Virus record (IMG/VR): IMGVR_UViG_2897369580_000001
DNA from: a virus
Taxonomy: Duplodnaviria > Heunggongvirae > Uroviricota > Caudoviricetes
Length of the DNA: 42,873 bases
Direction: 5' to 3' (one strand)
Shown here: positions 22,976-35,835 of the stretch, piece after piece
Numbering within the stretch: position 1 is the first letter of the stretch
How the letters are laid out: each line of letters starts with the position of its first letter
Notes under the pieces: model-generated
Database searches by the model: none
What the model was told of the DNA's origin: nothing
Seen by the model: only the letters and a program-made list of their open reading frames with translations
Position numbers and translations under genes: made by a program

Positions 22976-23052
22976 GGTTAACTCCAGGTGGCGCGGCAGT
23001 GTTCAGAAAATGATGCCGGGTGTTCAATCCAGCACCGATATTATACCGTGTT

Positions 23053-23232
23053 TTACGCGTCAGGGGGTGTAATAGTATATCCAGCTATTTCTGCCAACTC
23101 GAGAAACGCCATCAGGCTGGCAATCCGCTCATCATCGGTCAGAACACGCACACCAACGATGTGTCCGTCCTTACGCTTGATAACAGCCCGGCATGTTTCC
23201 GGTAGTTCGCCTATAGATTCTTGAATATTCAT
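23053..23232 (-). CDS. Small protein under a LexA-box promoter (SOS-inducible; antirepressor candidate)
   Basis: 59 aa from ATG at 23232 with GGGGGGAAG RBS; promoter and LexA box directly upstream. Confidence 0.5.
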   Translation of the reverse strand: MNIQESIGELPETCRAVIKRKDGHIVGVRVLTDDERIASLMAFLELAEIAGYTITPPDA

Positions 23233-23254
23233 GTCTTCCCCCCAATGCCACAAC

Positions 23255-23270
23255 CTGTATATTTATACAG
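23255..23270. promoter_or_regulatory. LexA (SOS) box overlapping a sigma70-like promoter
   Basis: CTGTATATTTATACAG fits CTGT-N8-ACAG with AT-rich spacer; on minus strand -35 ATGACA, 17-nt spacer, -10 TATAAA inside the box. Confidence 0.7.
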
Positions 23271-23383
23271 TATTTTATGGCATTTGTCATAACGCCAAAT
23301 ACAATGAGGGAATAATGAACAATTATATTCACGTCGTGAATTTTATTAAACGGTTTTATAGGGGATTAAACCGTTTATGGTCA

Positions 23384-24025
23384 TTATTTATCACTCCTGT
23401 AAATTGGAATTAACCATTTTCTAATCGTCGACGCTGCAGGTGGGTCAGAGTATTTCGCCACAAAAATACCGGATATGTATTGCACGCCACGCGATAATGG
23501 CGCTGTCGGGTTTTCAGTAAAAAAACGATCAGCCAGTTCAATGGCTTCGCTTTTTAATCTGTGCTGTGGTCGTCCTCCGCCCTTTGTTCCCAGGTATCGC
23601 GCCAGTTGTTTGAAACGGTAGGCGATGATTAACGGTCGCATCATCATATTGAAAAAATCGCGGGCATCGTTGTCAGCGCCTTGCGCTATCAACAGTGCAA
23701 AAAACAGATACGGGATTATGTACACTTCAGGAGATATACGAACCCGTTCACAAGTTGGTGGAGCCAACTCAATAAGTAAGTCAGCCAGCGGATTCCCCTT
23801 TTCTCCACGTTTGTAATAGCGATACAGCGGCCCGATATCAAGTTCACTCACGTCGATTTCAGGATGCCCGGCAACGACTGTACGTATCTCTTCTGCCAGA
23901 GCGTCAAATATTGCCCCGGTCCGTTCAAGATAGAGCCTCCGGGTCGAACCGCGATCATCCAACGCCCGTAACATATCTAACCGGCTAACGAAAGTTTCAG
24001 GCCAGTCCTCATAGAAGGTTTTCAT
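23384..24025 (-). CDS. Hypothetical protein (accessory gene)
   Basis: ATG at 24025 with GAGGT RBS; 213 aa; no family recognised. Confidence 0.55.
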   Translation of the reverse strand: MKTFYEDWPETFVSRLDMLRALDDRGSTRRLYLERTGAIFDALAEEIRTVVAGHPEIDVSELDIGPLYRYYKRGEKGNPLADLLIELAPPTCERVRISPEVYIIPYLFFALLIAQGADNDARDFFNMMMRPLIIAYRFKQLARYLGTKGGGRPQHRLKSEAIELADRFFTENPTAPLSRGVQYISGIFVAKYSDPPAASTIRKWLIPIYRSDK

Positions 24026-24268
24026 AATTACCTCGAATAATAAAAACTGCACTATTTGCACAATTTATTATTCGTTTTCACGCCGCTGAGTTCTATAAAA
24101 AAGAAAAAACCTCCGAGGCAGGGTTTTGTTATGGCTCGTTAAATCATCATCCAACTTTTTAGACTGAACGGTGATACTTGCAAATATTTGAAAATATGGG
24201 CTGGAACCCTATCTTATGATGTGCCTGGTAATTTATATTGTTGGGTCTTTATATCATGAGGAATCACT

Positions 24269-24502
24269 ATGGGTACGTTAGGCAACCAGCCGTGCAGAAG
24301 TCGTTATGAGTTCGATGATTTTAATTTAGCCAATCGAGCTGCGGCTCTTACTAAGTTAGCAAAAGAAACTGGTGTATCGGTGGATACCTTAATCAAACTT
24401 GAAATTGCTATGCAACTGAATCGGCTCAACTCCATCCTTATCGAAAACGGTGACAAGATGGACGAGAATCTGGCAGGTATTGGCGAGATACTGCAGAAGT
24501 GA
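24269..24502 (+). CDS. Small putative HTH DNA-binding protein
   Basis: 77 aa; GAGGAA RBS; helix-turn-helix-like AALTKLAKETGVSVDTLIKLE; followed by terminator hairpin. Confidence 0.5.
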   Translation: MGTLGNQPCRSRYEFDDFNLANRAAALTKLAKETGVSVDTLIKLEIAMQLNRLNSILIENGDKMDENLAGIGEILQK

Positions 24503-24508
24503 GAGTAG

Positions 24509-24524
24509 CCCCTCTTCTGAGGGG
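24509..24524 (+). terminator. Intrinsic terminator-like hairpin
   Basis: CCCCTC-ttct-GAGGGG perfect stem, then TTGCACATTT. Confidence 0.45.
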
Positions 24525-24802
24525 TTGCACATTTAAAATATTAAGGGCGGTCTTCTTCACGTACACAGTCACCTGGTCGAATCGTTCACGCATACTGAGT
24601 ACAAAAAATCTCAACGATAAGATCAGGTTAGACCTGTATTTTCCAGAAACATATAGACGCCTAAAAAAACACTAAACTCATGATTATCATGTATGTTTTT
24701 ACTGGAAACATTGAACCATCCACAATACAGCGTAAAAAGCAAGCAATTCACAAGATTTTAAAGTGATTTATCTGGAAGACTTTACTACTAACAGTTAATA
24801 TC

Positions 24803-24845
24803 GTACCAGAAGTGCAGAATTTGCACTTTTACAGGAATGTGGTAC
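24803..24845. promoter_or_regulatory. Nested palindromes (operator candidate) upstream of ImmA-like gene
   Basis: GTACCA...AGTGCA-gaattt-TGCACT...TGGTAC about 60-100 bp upstream of the ATG at 24901. Confidence 0.4.
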
Positions 24846-24900
24846 GGAACATGCTGTCTATATTTCAACCAATAATCGTAATGCAGTAACTGGAGGAGCT

Positions 24901-25389
24901 ATGGCTACCAACCCAAGAGAGCACGCCCGGCGAGTGCTGGACACGTTCTGGTGCGGGCGTGGTTTCCCTGTTGATCCAGCGAAAATTGCTCACGACATGG
25001 GATTAGATGTTTTTATTACCGATCTTCCTGGGAAAGTTTCTGGCGCACTGATTAAACAAAAAGATCAAGATCCAGCGATCTTTCTAAACAGTGATGACAA
25101 CAAAGTTCGTCAACGTTTTTCATGTGGGCATGAGTTGGGGCATTACATCGCCCGGCAAGCATCGCATAGCGATGAATATGAGTACGTTGATTTACGTGGC
25201 GAAACCGCAAGCGCCGGAACGCATCCTGATGAAATTTTTGCAAACAAGTTCGCAGCAGAACTTCTGATGCCGGTAGATGAGGTCAGAAAACTGCACGCTG
25301 ACGGTCAACCAAGTTATATAATGGCGCATTATTTTGGCGTATCTGACGATGCGATGACTTATCGTTTAAAGAACTTGAGGTTGGGGTAA
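24901..25389 (+). CDS. ImmA/IrrE family metallo-endopeptidase (DUF955/COG2856-like)
   Basis: 162 aa; GGAGGAG RBS; HEXXH in ...SCGHELGHYIARQ... typical of ImmA/IrrE zinc peptidases. Confidence 0.8.
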   Translation: MATNPREHARRVLDTFWCGRGFPVDPAKIAHDMGLDVFITDLPGKVSGALIKQKDQDPAIFLNSDDNKVRQRFSCGHELGHYIARQASHSDEYEYVDLRGETASAGTHPDEIFANKFAAELLMPVDEVRKLHADGQPSYIMAHYFGVSDDAMTYRLKNLRLG

Positions 25390-25398
25390 CGCTTTAAA

Positions 25399-26004
25399 AT
25401 GCCATCGGATGACGATTTTAACAGCCGTTTCAAACAGGAAGTAGCACGCAGACTGAAGGATTCCCTCAACCTACACCGTCAGTTAGCAGAAGAGGTTGAG
25501 CCGGAGGACGATGAAACTCCGGTTCAGTCTCCTGACGAAGCTTCACCTCAGCCAAAGGTTTCGCACGCCCCCAAAAAAACGGCTGTCCGTATTCGCGGAA
25601 TAGCCAGAAAAAGAGCTGCCGAAGCTCGCAAAATGGCTGTAGCTGCGTCTAGCAAAAGAATTCCAACTGCTACACCCTCTCAACAAGTCACCCGTACTGA
25701 GAGTAAAATCTTGACCGAGTTCACATCTGTGAAACAGGTGAATTCACTTGATACCGAGCATGAGCGCAAACAACTCAACAACAAAGATTTTGAAGCAGAA
25801 ATCGCTCTAAAAAAACGATACGGGAAATGGTTCCTGATTATCCTTGCTTTCCAACTTCTGATAATGAATGGTGTATTTATTGCCGACGGCGCAGGTAAGC
25901 TGGAATTTGAGGATTTAACACTACAGTTGTACATGGGCGGTACTTTGACAGAGGTATTCGGCCTCGTGCTGGTCGTGACAAAATACCTTTTTAAACGCAA
26001 GTAA
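25399..26004 (+). CDS. Membrane protein with charged N-terminal region and two C-terminal TM helices (putative effector)
   Basis: 201 aa; starts 9 bp after peptidase stop; C-terminal hydrophobic helices; last 72 bp duplicated at 29355..29426. Confidence 0.65.
   Translation: MPSDDDFNSRFKQEVARRLKDSLNLHRQLAEEVEPEDDETPVQSPDEASPQPKVSHAPKKTAVRIRGIARKRAAEARKMAVAASSKRIPTATPSQQVTRTESKILTEFTSVKQVNSLDTEHERKQLNNKDFEAEIALKKRYGKWFLIILAFQLLIMNGVFIADGAGKLEFEDLTLQLYMGGTLTEVFGLVLVVTKYLFKRK
25933..26004 (+). repeat. Direct repeat copy 1 (3' end of membrane-protein gene)
   Basis: 72 bp, about 90% identical to 29355..29426; encodes MGGTLTEVFGLVLVVTKYLFKRK*. Confidence 0.9.
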
Positions 26005-26028
26005 CTCTCTCGGTCCAACAGTCTTTCG

Positions 26029-26050
26029 AAGGCCCTGATCAAAGGGCCTT
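26029..26050 (+). terminator. Terminator-like hairpin after membrane-protein gene
   Basis: AAGGCCCT-gatcaa-AGGGCCTT. Confidence 0.45.
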
Positions 26051-26248
26051 GATAAATTAGCAGTGCGTTGAAAACAGATAGTTATTCCCATCAGTTCCAA
26101 CGTAATACACATCAAAAAAATCACCATTCTTTTGCTCTAACGTCAACACCTACCCTTAAAAAAATAATTCTCCAAGAATGAGAAAGTTATTGTGTGTATT
26201 AGATAAGATATGAGCTGACACATCTATGGCGTGGAGCCAAATTTAATA

Positions 26249-26282
26249 TGACAGTCCGCTCTGTGCCATAAGCGGACTGTCA
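26249..26282. terminator. Perfect 12-bp inverted repeat hairpin between convergent genes
   Basis: TGACAGTCCGCT-ctgtgccata-AGCGGACTGTCA. Confidence 0.5.
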
Positions 26283-26466
26283 ATAAACAGATTCACTTGT
26301 AAATCTTGAAGCTATACATATTTACTTTCAATGATAAATAAAAGAACTATCCAAAAATCACTGAGAGCATATTTTAACTAACCCTCCGCTACTATTAACA
26401 TAAATTTCACCCAACCATAATTAAATTGATACATATAGCAACTTACCTTGATACGAATCATCTGGG

Positions 26467-27165
26467 TTATATTTTTCCATATTTTTTTCCGTCAAATCGA
26501 ATCATGCCAGGATCAAGAAAATTAATTAAATCGATTAACGCGTGCTGTATTCTGATTAGCCTTTCTTTATAAATTCCGATATCTCTTGTCATATTTATCA
26601 CTTCATTGTTTAAATCTAAAAAAAATGGCTCATTGATAAAGCAATTTTCCTTTGTGAAACTGCCGTAACCTATGCAATCAAATCCAGTATCTGTTGATAT
26701 CAGCATCTTTTCTGCAATAGCTCTCTGCTCTCCTATGAAAAACATAAAATACTGACCAAAGACGTCTGTTTGGATTAATGAGTTAATATTGTTCTGTAAT
26801 CTAATAAACTCCCTCATTTTTTTATTTTTTTCTAGGCTAAGGTATTGAATGTCTATGCGGGCAGCTTCTGTCCATGCAAAAAACTGGGAAAAAAGAAAAA
26901 CAGTATTGTTGATAACATAATCTTGTTGGCGCTTATTCCCATTATGATAAAACTCTTCAATGAACCCCAATTCTAATATATTATAAATACGGCTTTGTAA
27001 GTCTGAAGCTGAGCGAATTAACGGTTCAATATAGTACTGATGTTTTCTCCTTACATCCAGTGATTCATTGAGCTTGTTTATTCTATTCTGATTATAAGTA
27101 GATATAGCAATAGAGATTATAGCTATTGCACCACTAATAAAGCTTGAAATTAATGCCGTACCCAT
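26467..27165 (-). CDS. AT-rich membrane-anchored protein of unknown function (defense/exclusion candidate)
   Basis: 232 aa; N-terminal TM helix ALISSFISGAIAIISIAISTY; Asn/Ile/Lys-rich; sits in visibly AT-rich cassette. Confidence 0.6.
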   Translation of the reverse strand: MGTALISSFISGAIAIISIAISTYNQNRINKLNESLDVRRKHQYYIEPLIRSASDLQSRIYNILELGFIEEFYHNGNKRQQDYVINNTVFLFSQFFAWTEAARIDIQYLSLEKNKKMREFIRLQNNINSLIQTDVFGQYFMFFIGEQRAIAEKMLISTDTGFDCIGYGSFTKENCFINEPFFLDLNNEVINMTRDIGIYKERLIRIQHALIDLINFLDPGMIRFDGKKYGKI

Positions 27166-28352
27166 CTAAAAGTCCTTTGATTCTTGCTTGGTTAACAAAA
27201 TGACATAATTTTATTTAATGCCATAACAACTTAACAATATATCATAATATGATTATTATGGTGTAGCTTGTCGCATCTACGCTCCATTACAAACAGATGT
27301 AAGATATAACCTATATGTTTTAGCCAGCAAATTCGAAAGCATTCAAAGTAGTCTCATCGAACTCTCGAAACCCTATGTCTTCGGGTATAAAATATTTAAA
27401 TCCATTTGCATAATATCGACTCATGTTTATTATATTCTCCCCATTCACCATTAAGATTTGACATTATTTTCAACAATCGGTTATTGCAAGATTGAAATAT
27501 ATTTTTACTTGACACAATATTCCATGTAGCCCAGCGATTCGACTTACCCCCAACTATACGGACAATCTAAATTAAATCGATGATTTTTTGATACATTCTC
27601 CTCTCTCCATTACTTTATGTTTTTGTTCCCCAAAAATACCTTGCTCTCTAAAAAATAATTGTTCTTTAAGTTCAAAATCGAGATCTACATGAGCGTTAGA
27701 TACAAAGCTAATATGTTGAAATGTCTTTCCCCCCCCATAACGGCATTGTTATCTAAACTATGTTACACAAATATAATATTACCCTTTCAACGTAATCCAA
27801 GAATAAGATTAATGCCATTATATATATCATAAATATGATATTTTGTATATTTTTATCATTTAGCCTTGATTGTACTAGGTGTACTCTCAACGAAGTAGGG
27901 AAAGTCTGTTCCTCGCTCACAGCTGCCCTTCAGTAAGCGAAAAAATGCCTACTCGGTGCCATATACAGCCATTGTTATTAACAGCAGGGAATAATTCAAA
28001 ACTGAAATTAAATATCTACCTTTTACAGTAGAAATAGTTCCTCCAGGACACTATCCATTGCCGGGCACAATCACTCGGGGTATAACGATATAAAATATGT
28101 TCATGATAGTGCAGGTTCGTATATTAAGTTCAGCAGCGAAAACATGCCTTACAGGTTTCCGGTTTTGGGAGCGTCGTTACAGGATCCTGCGCATACCGTT
28201 CCCATCTGTTGAATTAAAGGTTTCACAGCCTTTGCCGATATCACCTTTTACCTTACCTGTGATGCGTTCAGTGCTCAGCGTTGTTTACTGTAGCTCTCGG
28301 GACTGATTACAGACCGCGTCTTAAAAACCAATCCTTACTCTAAAGGGAATTC

Positions 28353-29276
28353 ATGAGATTAAAATACTCAGTACTCTTACTCGCCATTGCCCTTACAGGC
28401 TGTGATAACAAAAAAGATGAGATCGGTTGTTCTTCGGAAATAACCCAGTCAGCTCTCATGGATTTATTAAAAAAATCTGCTTATGAAGGACTCTCTGAAC
28501 AGGTCGATAAATACCCTGATGTCACTAATCAGACCAAACGAAGCACACTGGACAAGATCAAACTAGCCATCTCTGAGATCTCCACAACATCAAGTGACAC
28601 GGGCAGCACAATGAAAACTTGTGAAGGGACCGTGACGATGACTCTATCTGCGAACGAGTACGTCCAGCTTTCAGATGCTTACAGAAAGAATTTTAATCGT
28701 AATCTCGATAAGCAAATGGAAAGCCTGTTTTTGGAGAACAACGCAAACGCCTTTTCAAAACGTATCACCTACACCGTGCAGGCGACCGACGATCAGAAAA
28801 ACGTTTTTGTAAAAACCTCTACTGATAATCCGATATCAGTGGGCGCCGCTTTACTGACATCGCTTTCCATTATCACCCCGATCGTTGAGCAGCAGAAAAT
28901 CCAGCAGGCTAAGGATGCCCAACAGAGTCAAATTGAAGCGGAACAACAGGTGCAACTCAGGGCGCAAGAACAGGCTAAGTATGAGGCGGAGAAGCAAATA
29001 GAGAGACAGGCACAACTTCAGCCGCAAAAAGCTGACAACCTTGATCAGTCCCGAATGGCATTTGCGAATGCCGACTCTGATTTGAGTACCGTCTGGAGCA
29101 AGTTAACCCCGGCGAAGAAAAAAGATTTGCTGCCTTCTCAGCGTCAGTGGATCAAAACTAAGGATGCTATGTGCGGTAAAGTTTCAATGCAGGGAACAGA
29201 TGCTGAAGTCAAGAAAATGGTCGACTGCCAGACGCAAATGACCCTTTCAAGAATCGCTTTCCTCAGAAACCAATAA
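28353..29276 (+). CDS. Lipoprotein with C-terminal DUF1311 (LprI-like) domain
   Basis: 307 aa; signal peptide with lipobox LTGC; Gln-rich coiled-coil middle; C-terminal ...QRQWIKTKDAMCG...DCQTQMTLSRIAFLRN two-Cys motif. Confidence 0.6.
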   Translation: MRLKYSVLLLAIALTGCDNKKDEIGCSSEITQSALMDLLKKSAYEGLSEQVDKYPDVTNQTKRSTLDKIKLAISEISTTSSDTGSTMKTCEGTVTMTLSANEYVQLSDAYRKNFNRNLDKQMESLFLENNANAFSKRITYTVQATDDQKNVFVKTSTDNPISVGAALLTSLSIITPIVEQQKIQQAKDAQQSQIEAEQQVQLRAQEQAKYEAEKQIERQAQLQPQKADNLDQSRMAFANADSDLSTVWSKLTPAKKKDLLPSQRQWIKTKDAMCGKVSMQGTDAEVKKMVDCQTQMTLSRIAFLRNQ

Positions 29277-29291
29277 CTGAAGTCTCCTTCA

Positions 29292-29323
29292 AGCTGGCGC
29301 CAGGTGTTAACCTGGTGCCAGCT
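29292..29323 (+). terminator. Terminator-like hairpin after lipoprotein gene
   Basis: AGCTGGCGCCAGG-tgttaa-CCTGGTGCCAGCT, 13-bp stem with 1 mismatch. Confidence 0.45.
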
Positions 29324-29354
29324 TAGTCATCAAGTGCATATGTAACTGTTTTAT

Positions 29355-29426
29355 ATGGGCGGTACTTTGACAGAGGTATTCGGTCTCGTGCTGGTCGTGG
29401 TCAAATACCTTTTTAAGCGCAAATAG
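29355..29426 (+). repeat. Direct repeat copy 2 (orphan 3' gene end; 23-codon ORF)
   Basis: About 90% identical to 25933..26004; preceded by in-frame stop; encodes MGGTLTEVFGLVLVVVKYLFKRK*. Confidence 0.9.
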
Positions 29427-29450
29427 AGTATTTCCGCCCCAAACAACCTG

Positions 29451-30269
29451 TCAAAATGCTGAATTAGCAACGGATATAGCCGACTTTTTCCCCATTACCA
29501 TCAATTTATCCAGTGTCATACTTCGCAGATTGTCGCTGTGGATCACCAGATACCCTGCCCGCTCAGCGATCTCTTTGAAAGCGTCAAAGGTCATCAGATG
29601 TTCGCCTTTGGCAACATGGCGCATCCCGGTCACTTTTCCATTTTTGATAGTGGTGATAAAAGAAAAATCTGGAATGGTTGGGTGATTTTCATCGAGTAGC
29701 AGGCAGTGGATGTATTCAATCGCCTCTAACATTTGCGTCTGTGACAGTTGTTCTATGTGAGAGACGGCGAAGCGTTGATGAATCATGGTGTAGGCATCGG
29801 GATACATCATGCCTTTCTTGCCGACCAGTATATTAACGGCATCACGCAAGGGAGTACGGTCATCGGTAGTTGTACTCCGCCTCTCTGGACGCTGGCTAAA
29901 ATAACAATCTTCCAGCTTTTCGAAAACTTCCCAGGCCTGTTCTGTTTCCAGCATTTTGGCATGGCGAGCTGCGCCGCGTTCTGTCCAGAGAATGAGGGAT
30001 CGGGTATGTTTAGCAACTGACTGACTATCTGTCAGTCTGTTTTTGAAGTCGCGTAATTCATTACCTTCCAGCTTAAAAAAATGCTTTCCTACGACAAATC
30101 TGGCGATGTTGCGCTTGAAGTTTTGCTGGATACCATTTACTTCCGTGCCATACAAACTGGCAAGCAATTCAGTAGTGATGACGGGAAGTTGGTTATGATG
30201 TAGCGGAGAAAGGGATTCCGCAGATATTTGGACTGTCATCGCAGTGGCCTCACTTAGTGTTTTTTTCAT
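29451..30269 (-). CDS. Phage antirepressor-like protein (ORF6N/Ant N-terminal-like domain)
   Basis: 272 aa from ATG at 30269; N-terminal ...LPVITTELLASLYGTEVNGIQQNFKRNIARFVVGKHFFKL... resembles Ant/ORF6N regions. Confidence 0.55.
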   Translation of the reverse strand: MKKTLSEATAMTVQISAESLSPLHHNQLPVITTELLASLYGTEVNGIQQNFKRNIARFVVGKHFFKLEGNELRDFKNRLTDSQSVAKHTRSLILWTERGAARHAKMLETEQAWEVFEKLEDCYFSQRPERRSTTTDDRTPLRDAVNILVGKKGMMYPDAYTMIHQRFAVSHIEQLSQTQMLEAIEYIHCLLLDENHPTIPDFSFITTIKNGKVTGMRHVAKGEHLMTFDAFKEIAERAGYLVIHSDNLRSMTLDKLMVMGKKSAISVANSAF

Positions 30270-30301
30270 CACCACCAGCGACGCCAATCATCTGGTGGTG
30301 A
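30269..30301. promoter_or_regulatory. 10-bp inverted repeat abutting antirepressor start codon
   Basis: TCACCACCAG-N13-CTGGTGGTGA; 3' arm contains the probable RBS. Confidence 0.4.
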
Positions 30302-35388: not shown

Positions 35389-35421
35389 GCTCCCTACAAT
35401 TAAACCTTGTATCCTTACGGT

Positions 35422-35835
35422 ATGAACACAAAAACGAAAAACATGGCTTTTGCTAGCCGACTACAACGGATTCTAAAAGACTTAGGCTGGTCTCAATCTG
35501 AGTTAGCTCGCCATATTGGGGTTACGGCTCAATCAGTTCAGGCATGGTGTAATGGGGTAACTCCAAGAAAAGATAAATTAGACAAGCTAGCAAAAGTGAC
35601 CGGATACCCTGTTCATTTTTTCTTCATGAATGAAGGGGAATATTTGGATGAATCCACACTACACCCGGGTAATTACAATCAAGAACTAACCCCGCAAGAA
35701 CAGGCTCTACTGCAACTATTCAGAGGACTGCCTGAGAGCGAAAAAAATAAATTAATCAATGAGCTAAAAGAAAAAAGAGAGCACTTCGATCTACTGCTAA
35801 AAGAACTACTTGAAGCCAAAAACCAGACAAAATAG
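35422..35835 (+). CDS. Prophage repressor, DicA-like (N-terminal XRE HTH, no S24 peptidase domain)
   Basis: N-terminal HTH SQSELARHIGVTAQSVQAWCNG; C-terminal ...LTPQEQALLQLFRGLPESEKNKL...LLKELLEAKNQTK resembles DicA C-terminus. Confidence 0.7.
   Translation: MNTKTKNMAFASRLQRILKDLGWSQSELARHIGVTAQSVQAWCNGVTPRKDKLDKLAKVTGYPVHFFFMNEGEYLDESTLHPGNYNQELTPQEQALLQLFRGLPESEKNKLINELKEKREHFDLLLKELLEAKNQTK

Follow-up and report, generated by a model that had tools for sequence, protein, structure and literature searches.

An Escherichia coli prophage carries a two-gene cassette that we regard as a probable member of the RosmerTA group of anti-phage toxin-antitoxin (TA) systems. The prophage is contained in IMG/VR virus record IMGVR_UViG_2897369580_000001, whose 42,873 nucleotides are the window analyzed here, and the cassette consists of the genes for a 162-aa peptidase and a 201-aa membrane protein (Table 1). 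With a probability of roughly 0.7, we read the pair as a prophage-borne RosmerTA of the D25/D5 subtype, in which a membrane toxin is kept under restraint and serves in infection-triggered defense. The gene structure, the domain identity of the peptidase, the conserved pairing of the two genes, and their homology to a tested pair of Gordonia phage Kita are established below. This reading would assign a function to a cassette annotated so far as "ImmA/IrrE peptidase + hypothetical protein". It would extend known biology without changing it, the module being a further RosmerTA member, native to an E. coli prophage.

Homology to the RosmerTA pair of Gordonia phage Kita

In a tblastn search of 50,697 cultured phage genomes with the peptidase, the best match outside E. 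coli was to a set of near-identical Gordonia phages, including gp32 of Kita (44% identity, 93% coverage, E 5e-31); pairwise BLASTP against gp32 gave 43% identity over 157 aa (E 1e-41). The next Kita gene, gp33, encodes a protein of 119 aa and overlaps gp32 by 4 nt. A broad hidden Markov model (HMM) of the membrane-protein family recovered gp33 with 43.8 bits (E 4e-12) and no false positive in 3,723 open reading frames (ORFs), all of its other matches in that set being peptidase-linked partners. In addition, a Rhodococcus member bridges the two membrane proteins, reaching gp33 by BLASTP at E 4e-10.

Both Kita proteins are listed in the supplementary information of the NetFlax study (Ernits et al. 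2023; PMC10440598), gp32 (YP_009301393.1) as RmrA_D25, "Peptidase_M78 (ImmA/RmrA)", and gp33 (YP_009301394.1) as RmrT_D5, "Transmembrane". According to the same study, RmrT_D5 is toxic on its own: it rapidly depolarizes and permeabilizes the E. coli membrane and rapidly stops translation, transcription, and replication. The pair protects E. coli from a few BASEL myoviruses, a narrow defense measured in a heterologous host with expression from a Ptet promoter (PMC10440598). Anti-phage defense has been found for Rosmer systems in several studies. In the work of Millman et al. (2022), RosmerTA consists of a zinc-peptidase antitoxin and a toxin whose function is unknown, and rmrA could not be deleted.

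The window pair shows the features by which such a system is recognized. That is, its peptidase is of the M78/ImmA zinc-peptidase type of the antitoxin, it is encoded in a conserved, co-oriented two-gene operon with the toxin gene, and the product of the latter is homologous, via the family HMM, to the validated RmrT_D5. An N-terminal Xre-type helix-turn-helix (HTH) domain, common but not universal on RmrA, is absent; since the Kita RmrA (178 aa) lacks one too, we do not consider it required. Judged by sequence, the pair fits the RosmerTA definition of Millman et al. and is homologous to a validated member. The original prediction for this locus, made from the letters of the DNA without database searches, had seen no named system to which the genes could be assigned; RosmerTA of the NetFlax D25/D5 type now takes that place. 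The TA-like, anti-phage role that this prediction suggested is still the most fitting interpretation, given the homology of the pair to the tested Kita RmrA/RmrT.

The likeness to Kita extends to an identical gene order, tight spacing, and a phage-borne location. Both peptidases (43% identical) are single M78 domains without an HTH, and both downstream genes encode a small protein with a C-terminal hydrophobic hairpin and a signature of T-x-x-E-V-x-G plus a terminal L-F. The two systems differ in the phylum of the host and in their toxins, the E. coli protein having 201 aa compared to 119 aa in Kita and carrying a long insert, charged and disordered, as well as an additional N-terminal helix that is conserved in Enterobacteriaceae. 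With canonical RosmerTA (Millman et al. 2022) and PD-lambda-2 (PMC9519451), the window pair would share the combination of an M78 component with a toxin, TA behavior, and anti-phage defense. In contrast to the single-domain window peptidase, the PADLOC models for RmrA comprise 357-400 positions, consistent with the published fusions of an Xre-HTH and a peptidase, and the toxins of these systems are unrelated to the window's membrane protein.

Several observations weigh against the assignment. A narrow enterobacterial profile matched gp33 weakly (hhalign probability 53%, E 1.4e-4), and a single-sequence tblastn search of the cultured phages with the membrane protein returned nothing, so that only the family profile reached gp33. 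No PADLOC 2.0.0 model recognizes the membrane protein, and the peptidase scores higher with CapP than with RmrA. Compared to the Kita protein, the linker of the E. coli toxin is longer by ~85 residues. As for Kita itself, RmrA neutralizes RmrT_D5 only partly, and no reliable AlphaFold complex of the two was obtained (pDockQ 0.05; PMC10440598). Moreover, the Xre-M78 fusion is itself the toxic part in PD-lambda-2 (Vassallo et al. 2022; PMC9519451), and the roles of toxin and antitoxin are therefore not to be assumed. A literature search with the three RefSeq protein accessions of the E. coli proteins found no paper.

The narrowness of the Kita defense, together with its heterologous host and Ptet promoter, also bears on what the pair does for its own prophage. 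Combined with a TA-like architecture on mobile elements, it would be compatible with a TA pair that serves addiction, element stabilization, or another prophage function and has no anti-phage role in E. coli. We consider this improbable in view of the phage defense provided by Rosmer systems of several studies and of the location of the pair in variable cargo sites alongside defense-type genes.

Peptidase and membrane protein form a conserved two-gene unit

The 162-aa protein matches Pfam Peptidase_M78 (PF06114) at E 7.7e-18 and 64.9 bits (cut-off 22), in agreement with the ImmA/IrrE-type HEXXH peptidase originally predicted. It consists of this single M78 domain, with no HTH and no GAF domain, and PHROG 87 labels it "metallo-protease". 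Residues H77, E78, and H81 of the HExxH motif and the third ligand, E111, are invariant in 27 homologues of 42-88% identity, which argues that catalysis is under selection. A PADLOC check, which had been proposed along with the prediction, reached the core of the peptidase through CapP (best, 2.4e-25) and many weaker RmrA models (up to 5.8e-12) and left the membrane protein without a model. The matches cover positions 3-151 of 242 in the CapP profile and ~145-290 of the 357-400 positions in the RmrA profiles; the sole PDB sequence match is CapP as well (7t5t, residues 79-152 of 291).

Searches with the membrane protein yielded 48 clusters when word-indexed and 683 representatives at E ≤0.001 with an exhaustive profile. 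In every locus sampled from this side, an M78 gene lies directly upstream of the membrane-protein gene, the spacing ranging from a 23-nt overlap to a 10-nt gap. This was the case in 10/10 species-representative genomes (including Leclercia, Buttiauxella, Thalassotalea, Gallibacterium, Microbulbifer, Desulfuromonas, and a Rhodococcus metagenome-assembled genome), in all 13 IMG/VR viral loci that have a full-length membrane gene, in prophages of Klebsiella and Cronobacter, and in four of four distant family representatives, down to E 4.5e-12. Sampled from the peptidase side, three of four homologues (45-56% identity) are followed by a member of the membrane-protein family. What is conserved is an operon of two genes, the peptidase gene followed by that of the membrane protein, a pairing far beyond chance. 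It occurs in prophage cargo sites, in P4-like satellites (primase, AlpA, integrase), and in islands beside restriction and TA genes, and the family spans Proteobacteria, Desulfuromonas, Actinobacteria, and a prophage with Gram-positive-type lysis genes. The Kita-type Rosmer pair thus belongs to a large family with members in several phyla, whose pairing is without exception across the loci sampled from the membrane-protein side.

One of these loci, a Cronobacter prophage (L005), has the pair directly after a hok/gef-family gene (5089-5244) and upstream of Q, with an LT-II-like enterotoxin A/B gene pair (9958-11076) downstream of Q, so that several toxic cargo genes are clustered there.

Further single-domain M78 peptidases, at a greater distance from the window protein (31-45% identity), were found in the P2-like E. 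coli phage OU784750.1 (L052), mycobacteriophage Che9c (L053), Burkholderia phage Carl1 (L054), and Pseudoalteromonas phage ACA1 (L055). In all four, the next annotated gene, adjacent to ~210 nt downstream, encodes a small membrane protein that is non-homologous to the RmrT_D5 family. From their sequences, these are probably further pairs of a peptidase and a membrane toxin, and their arrangement implies that the succession of an M78 peptidase without an HTH and a membrane protein recurs, with swapping of the partner at long range. Such swapping fits the hub behavior of the ImmA node in NetFlax (PMC10440598). We also note that the three of these membrane proteins that come from P2-like phages share, by eye, a C-terminal motif of their own, and that the ACA1 peptidase is annotated "antirepressor".

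The partner sets the window peptidase apart from the M78 enzymes of CapP/CapH, IrrE/DdrO, and ImmA/ImmR. The catalytic domain is the same, and ImmA is similarly single-domain; here, however, the partner is a membrane protein and no HTH substrate is adjacent. There is no neighboring HTH repressor comparable to CapH, nor is an HTH gene linked to the pair in the other loci, and the CI-like gene of the prophage, which would correspond to the neighboring repressor of ImmA/ImmR, lies ~10 kb away (35407-35835). Unlike CapP, the window protein ends after the peptidase domain and has neither the C-terminal GAF domain nor the ssDNA groove. CapP-like ssDNA sensing was rejected on the absence of the GAF domain, and the peptidase carries no other recognizable sensor domain.

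ImmA, IrrE, and CapP all cleave HTH repressors, and the 130-aa CI-like protein of the prophage has an HTH_3 domain only, with no S24 self-cleavage domain. Both facts would suit an ImmA-type prophage switch, in which the peptidase cleaves the CI-like repressor or another regulator to bring about induction and the membrane protein acts as a modulator. We hold this to be very unlikely. None of the loci has a repressor gene linked to the pair, which also removes the parallel to the ICEBs1 ImmR/ImmA switch drawn in the original prediction; the peptidase is instead coupled to a membrane protein in every locus sampled from the membrane-protein side. The pair, moreover, stands at varied positions and in varied orientations, including satellites and islands with unrelated regulation, and is independent of immunity regions. 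Finally, the prophage has a candidate SOS route of its own, with a perfect LexA box before a 59-aa gene.

This box, CTGTATATTTATACAG, matches the LexA-box consensus perfectly at 23255-23270, 23-38 nt upstream of the 59-aa gene (23053-23232, minus strand), whose product falls into phrog_340 with a weak anti-repressor match. The arrangement suggests SOS induction of the prophage through a small LexA-controlled antirepressor, as in the Gifsy phages.

Upstream of the pair lies a third ORF, orf77, which encodes 77 aa. The three co-directional ORFs originally described (77, 162, and 201 aa, on the plus strand, with the flanking phage genes on the minus strand) are real, but neither the three-gene module nor the HTH-like character of the first product held up. 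For orf77, neither Pfam nor NCBIfam gave an HTH or other DNA-binding match even at E 0.1; its AlphaFold2 (AF2) model has two helices only (17-34 and 38-76; pLDDT 82), and Foldseek found nothing below E 4 for this model in the PDB. A by-eye idea of a ribbon-helix-helix fold was unsupported, Arc and CopG appearing only at E 7-9. The homologues are almost all from E. coli or metagenome contigs, and the only divergent one, of 53% identity (L018), stands alone near the integrase of another prophage with no peptidase nearby. All non-E. coli pair loci (L002-L017) lack orf77, including that of E. whittamii, whose membrane protein is 91% identical, and it is retained in L037 and L038, two prophages from which the pair has been lost. 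Within the window, a hairpin (~24508-24527, just after orf77) and a 398-bp gap separate it from the peptidase gene. We conclude that orf77 is an unrelated neighbor and not a component of the module.

The gap, which forms the leader of the pair, holds a GGAGGA ribosome-binding site (RBS) and a perfect palindrome of the 7-5-7 type, AAGTGCA-GAATT-TGCACTT (24810-24828), which precedes the peptidase start by 73 nt. Conservation of the leader, palindrome included, does not extend beyond E. coli and E. whittamii except for the RBS-proximal part, which other genera share, and an alignment of peptidase upstream regions across six genera revealed no conserved operator. As the palindrome is confined to these two species, we do not claim it as an operator. 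A promoter and terminator scan of the leader gave nothing above shuffled expectation. The palindrome, and the co-directional and adjacent position of orf77 in E. coli, are what a three-gene system with orf77 as DNA-binding regulator of the pair might lead one to expect. We nonetheless give such a system hardly any credence: orf77 has a two-helix model and no match to a DNA-binding domain, the palindrome is not conserved beyond the two Escherichia species, and orf77 is not co-conserved with the pair, as it is missing from E. whittamii and all other genera, occurs in L037 and L038 where the pair is lacking, and stands by itself in L018.

Predicted membrane toxin and its proposed proteolytic control

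No Pfam, NCBIfam, or PADLOC family covers the 201-aa protein. Its AF2 model, from a 20-sequence alignment, has helices at residues 4-32, 119-164, and 172-198, with residues 33-118 disordered (mean pLDDT 62; 75-85 in the helices). Hydropathy marks a strong transmembrane (TM) segment at 144-162 (Kyte-Doolittle 2.26), and the second helix of the hairpin is less hydrophobic and holds T182 and E185. The charged, disordered N-terminal half and the hydrophobic C-terminal helices of the original prediction were thus recovered, with one clear TM helix and a less hydrophobic second one. Since both ends of the hairpin are flanked by basic residues and its short connecting loop is acidic, the positive-inside rule leads us to infer a hairpin of N-in, C-in topology; the first ~140 residues would then be cytoplasmic and accessible to the peptidase.

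A common signature of 132 divergent members comprises a juxtamembrane helix (D-x-x-x-[DE]-x-x-L-K-K-x-Y; residues ~130-141), polar residues inside the hydrophobic helices (Q152, N157, T182, and E185; 86-95% conserved), and a terminal L-F. The N-terminal part is free in length and sequence and has ~30 residues in many members. Conserved polar residues within hydrophobic helices would be more in keeping with an oligomeric pore or channel than with a passive anchor. A role as a holin was rejected: in this prophage the pair is not part of the lysis cassette, to which it runs in the opposite direction, and there are satellites and islands that carry it without lysis genes in the examined flanks.

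Toxicity, depolarization, partial neutralization, and defense are properties that we carry over from the experiments on the Kita homologue, and on this analogy we propose the following course of events. The 201-aa protein would insert into the inner membrane via its C-terminal helical hairpin, with the N-terminus in the cytoplasm, and would, if unrestrained, depolarize and permeabilize the membrane as reported for RmrT_D5. The cytoplasmic M78 peptidase, encoded upstream in the same tightly spaced operon, would hold the toxin in check, presumably by catalysis rather than by stoichiometric binding, with a cut in the cytoplasmic N-terminal or juxtamembrane part of the toxin. Certain phage infections would remove this control, upon which the toxin may collapse the membrane potential; infection would abort, and neighboring lysogens would be protected.

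Three observations point to proteolytic neutralization. The catalytic residues do not vary; modeling gave no stable complex of the Kita proteins; and the juxtamembrane helix, the only conserved cytoplasmic element of the toxin, is a plausible site of recognition or cleavage. Taken one step further, the peptidase might be a catalytic antitoxin, which continuously cleaves the juxtamembrane segment of a pore-forming toxin at a specific site until a phage blocks or out-competes this cleavage; we offer this tentatively, as a possibility short of an expectation. If true, such proteolytic toxin neutralization would be distinct from the action of classical binding antitoxins, and the catalytic mode would span a large, strictly paired family (683 representative clusters) for which Pfam and PADLOC have no model.

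Invariant catalytic residues would also be expected if proteolysis worked in the opposite direction, that is, if the membrane protein were a zymogen and the peptidase sensed infection, cut the N-terminal part, and freed a pore-forming hairpin. Being variable and disordered, the N-terminal part could be a removable inhibitor; M78 enzymes such as CapP are signal-activated, and proteolytic licensing of pore-formers is an established defense logic, with gasdermin, Pepco, and EACC1 as examples (10.1101/2025.11.14.688446). Still, this activation scheme seems unlikely to us. The Kita toxin is toxic without its peptidase, and the peptidase counteracts it, which is why we see the protease as restraining the effector rather than activating it. 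In addition, the N-terminal part contains no conserved folded inhibitory domain and is often as short as ~30 residues, the peptidase is devoid of a GAF or any other sensor, and the proteases of the published protease-effector modules are of the serine or cysteine type and not M78 enzymes (10.1101/2025.11.14.688446). From the protease-gated membrane effector of the original prediction, the functional pair therefore remains, with the Kita evidence speaking for restraint and not for activation.

The comparison with the gasdermin, Pepco, and EACC1 modules (10.1101/2025.11.14.688446) shows the same division. In both cases a protease gene is linked to that of a small, here putative, membrane-damaging effector on defense loci. 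Theirs are sensor-fused serine or cysteine proteases whose cleavage activates the effector, whereas in the window a sensor-less M78 enzyme most likely restrains a self-active toxin. Homology to the effectors of those modules was not found either, the membrane protein having no Pfam or PADLOC match. Under the RosmerTA reading, the pair would offer a tractable, E. coli-native model for the control of a membrane toxin by an M78 peptidase and for the phage cue that releases it.

Prophage setting and cargo island

The E. coli prophage that makes up the window is integrated next to tRNA-Leu/Cys/Gly genes and pgsA-uvrC, and combines a lambdoid early region with a contractile tail. Its immunity, replication, nin-like, Q, lysis, and structural genes are on the minus strand; among them, Q, DUF1364, DUF1367, a 225-aa gene, ORF6N, and the replication genes flank the module. 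The module itself lies inside an island of mixed orientation between ORF6N (29451-30287) and the 225-aa gene (23384-24061), with a GC content of 33-45% compared to ~46-52% in the phage DNA on either side. Of 5,426 complete E. coli genomes, 410 cover at least 80% of the 2.2-kb segment 24000-26200, with ≥99% identity in almost every case, and the segment also matches the end of the deposited phage record vB_EcoM-705R4. In some strains an IS1 element sits beside the module, in the downstream intergenic region, and leaves it undisrupted. An Rfam scan of 23000-29500 gave two sub-threshold chance matches and nothing else.

Table 1. Features of the cassette and its surroundings (positions in the window)
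Feature	Position	Strand	Remark
orf77 (77 aa, phrog_5550)	24269..24502	+	neighbor gene, outside the conserved module
non-coding leader of the pair, 398 bp	24503..24900	+	read from sequence; promoter presumed here
rmrA-like gene (162 aa, M78 peptidase)	24901..25389	+	predicted antitoxin or controller
rmrT(D5)-like gene (201 aa, phrog_5346)	25399..26004	+	predicted membrane-depolarizing toxin
rmrT-like 3' remnant, 81 nt	29345..29425	+	89% identical to 25923-26003

The last 81 nt of the toxin gene recur as a direct repeat 3.4 kb downstream, just before ORF6N, where they represent the 3' end of a second rmrT-like gene. In related prophages (L037-L045), this remnant alone is kept and the full toxin gene is gone. 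Judged by its sequence, the remnant was apparently left behind when cassettes were exchanged through recombination at the conserved 3' end. One of these prophages (L037, IMG/VR; positions 2976-7008) has other cargo between orf77 and the toxin-gene remnant, namely, a 352-aa GmrSD_N (DUF262) protein and three proteins without a family. The site acts as a hotspot at which defense-type genes are swapped in.

In the window, the 81-nt repeats bracket two further genes. The first (26467-27165, minus strand), which lies in the stretch of lowest GC content in the window (~33%), encodes a 232-aa protein of phrog_5606 with an N-terminal hydrophobic stretch. It gives a weak PADLOC match (E 1.8e-5) to RTasTM, the transmembrane partner of the DRT reverse transcriptases, and no reverse transcriptase gene is nearby; the protein may be another stand-alone cargo or defense gene product. 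The second (28353-29276, plus strand) encodes a predicted lipoprotein of 307 aa, a prophage moron with a signal sequence ending in LTGC, a Q/E-rich coiled segment, and a C-terminal LprI lysozyme-inhibitor domain (PF07007, E 4e-7).

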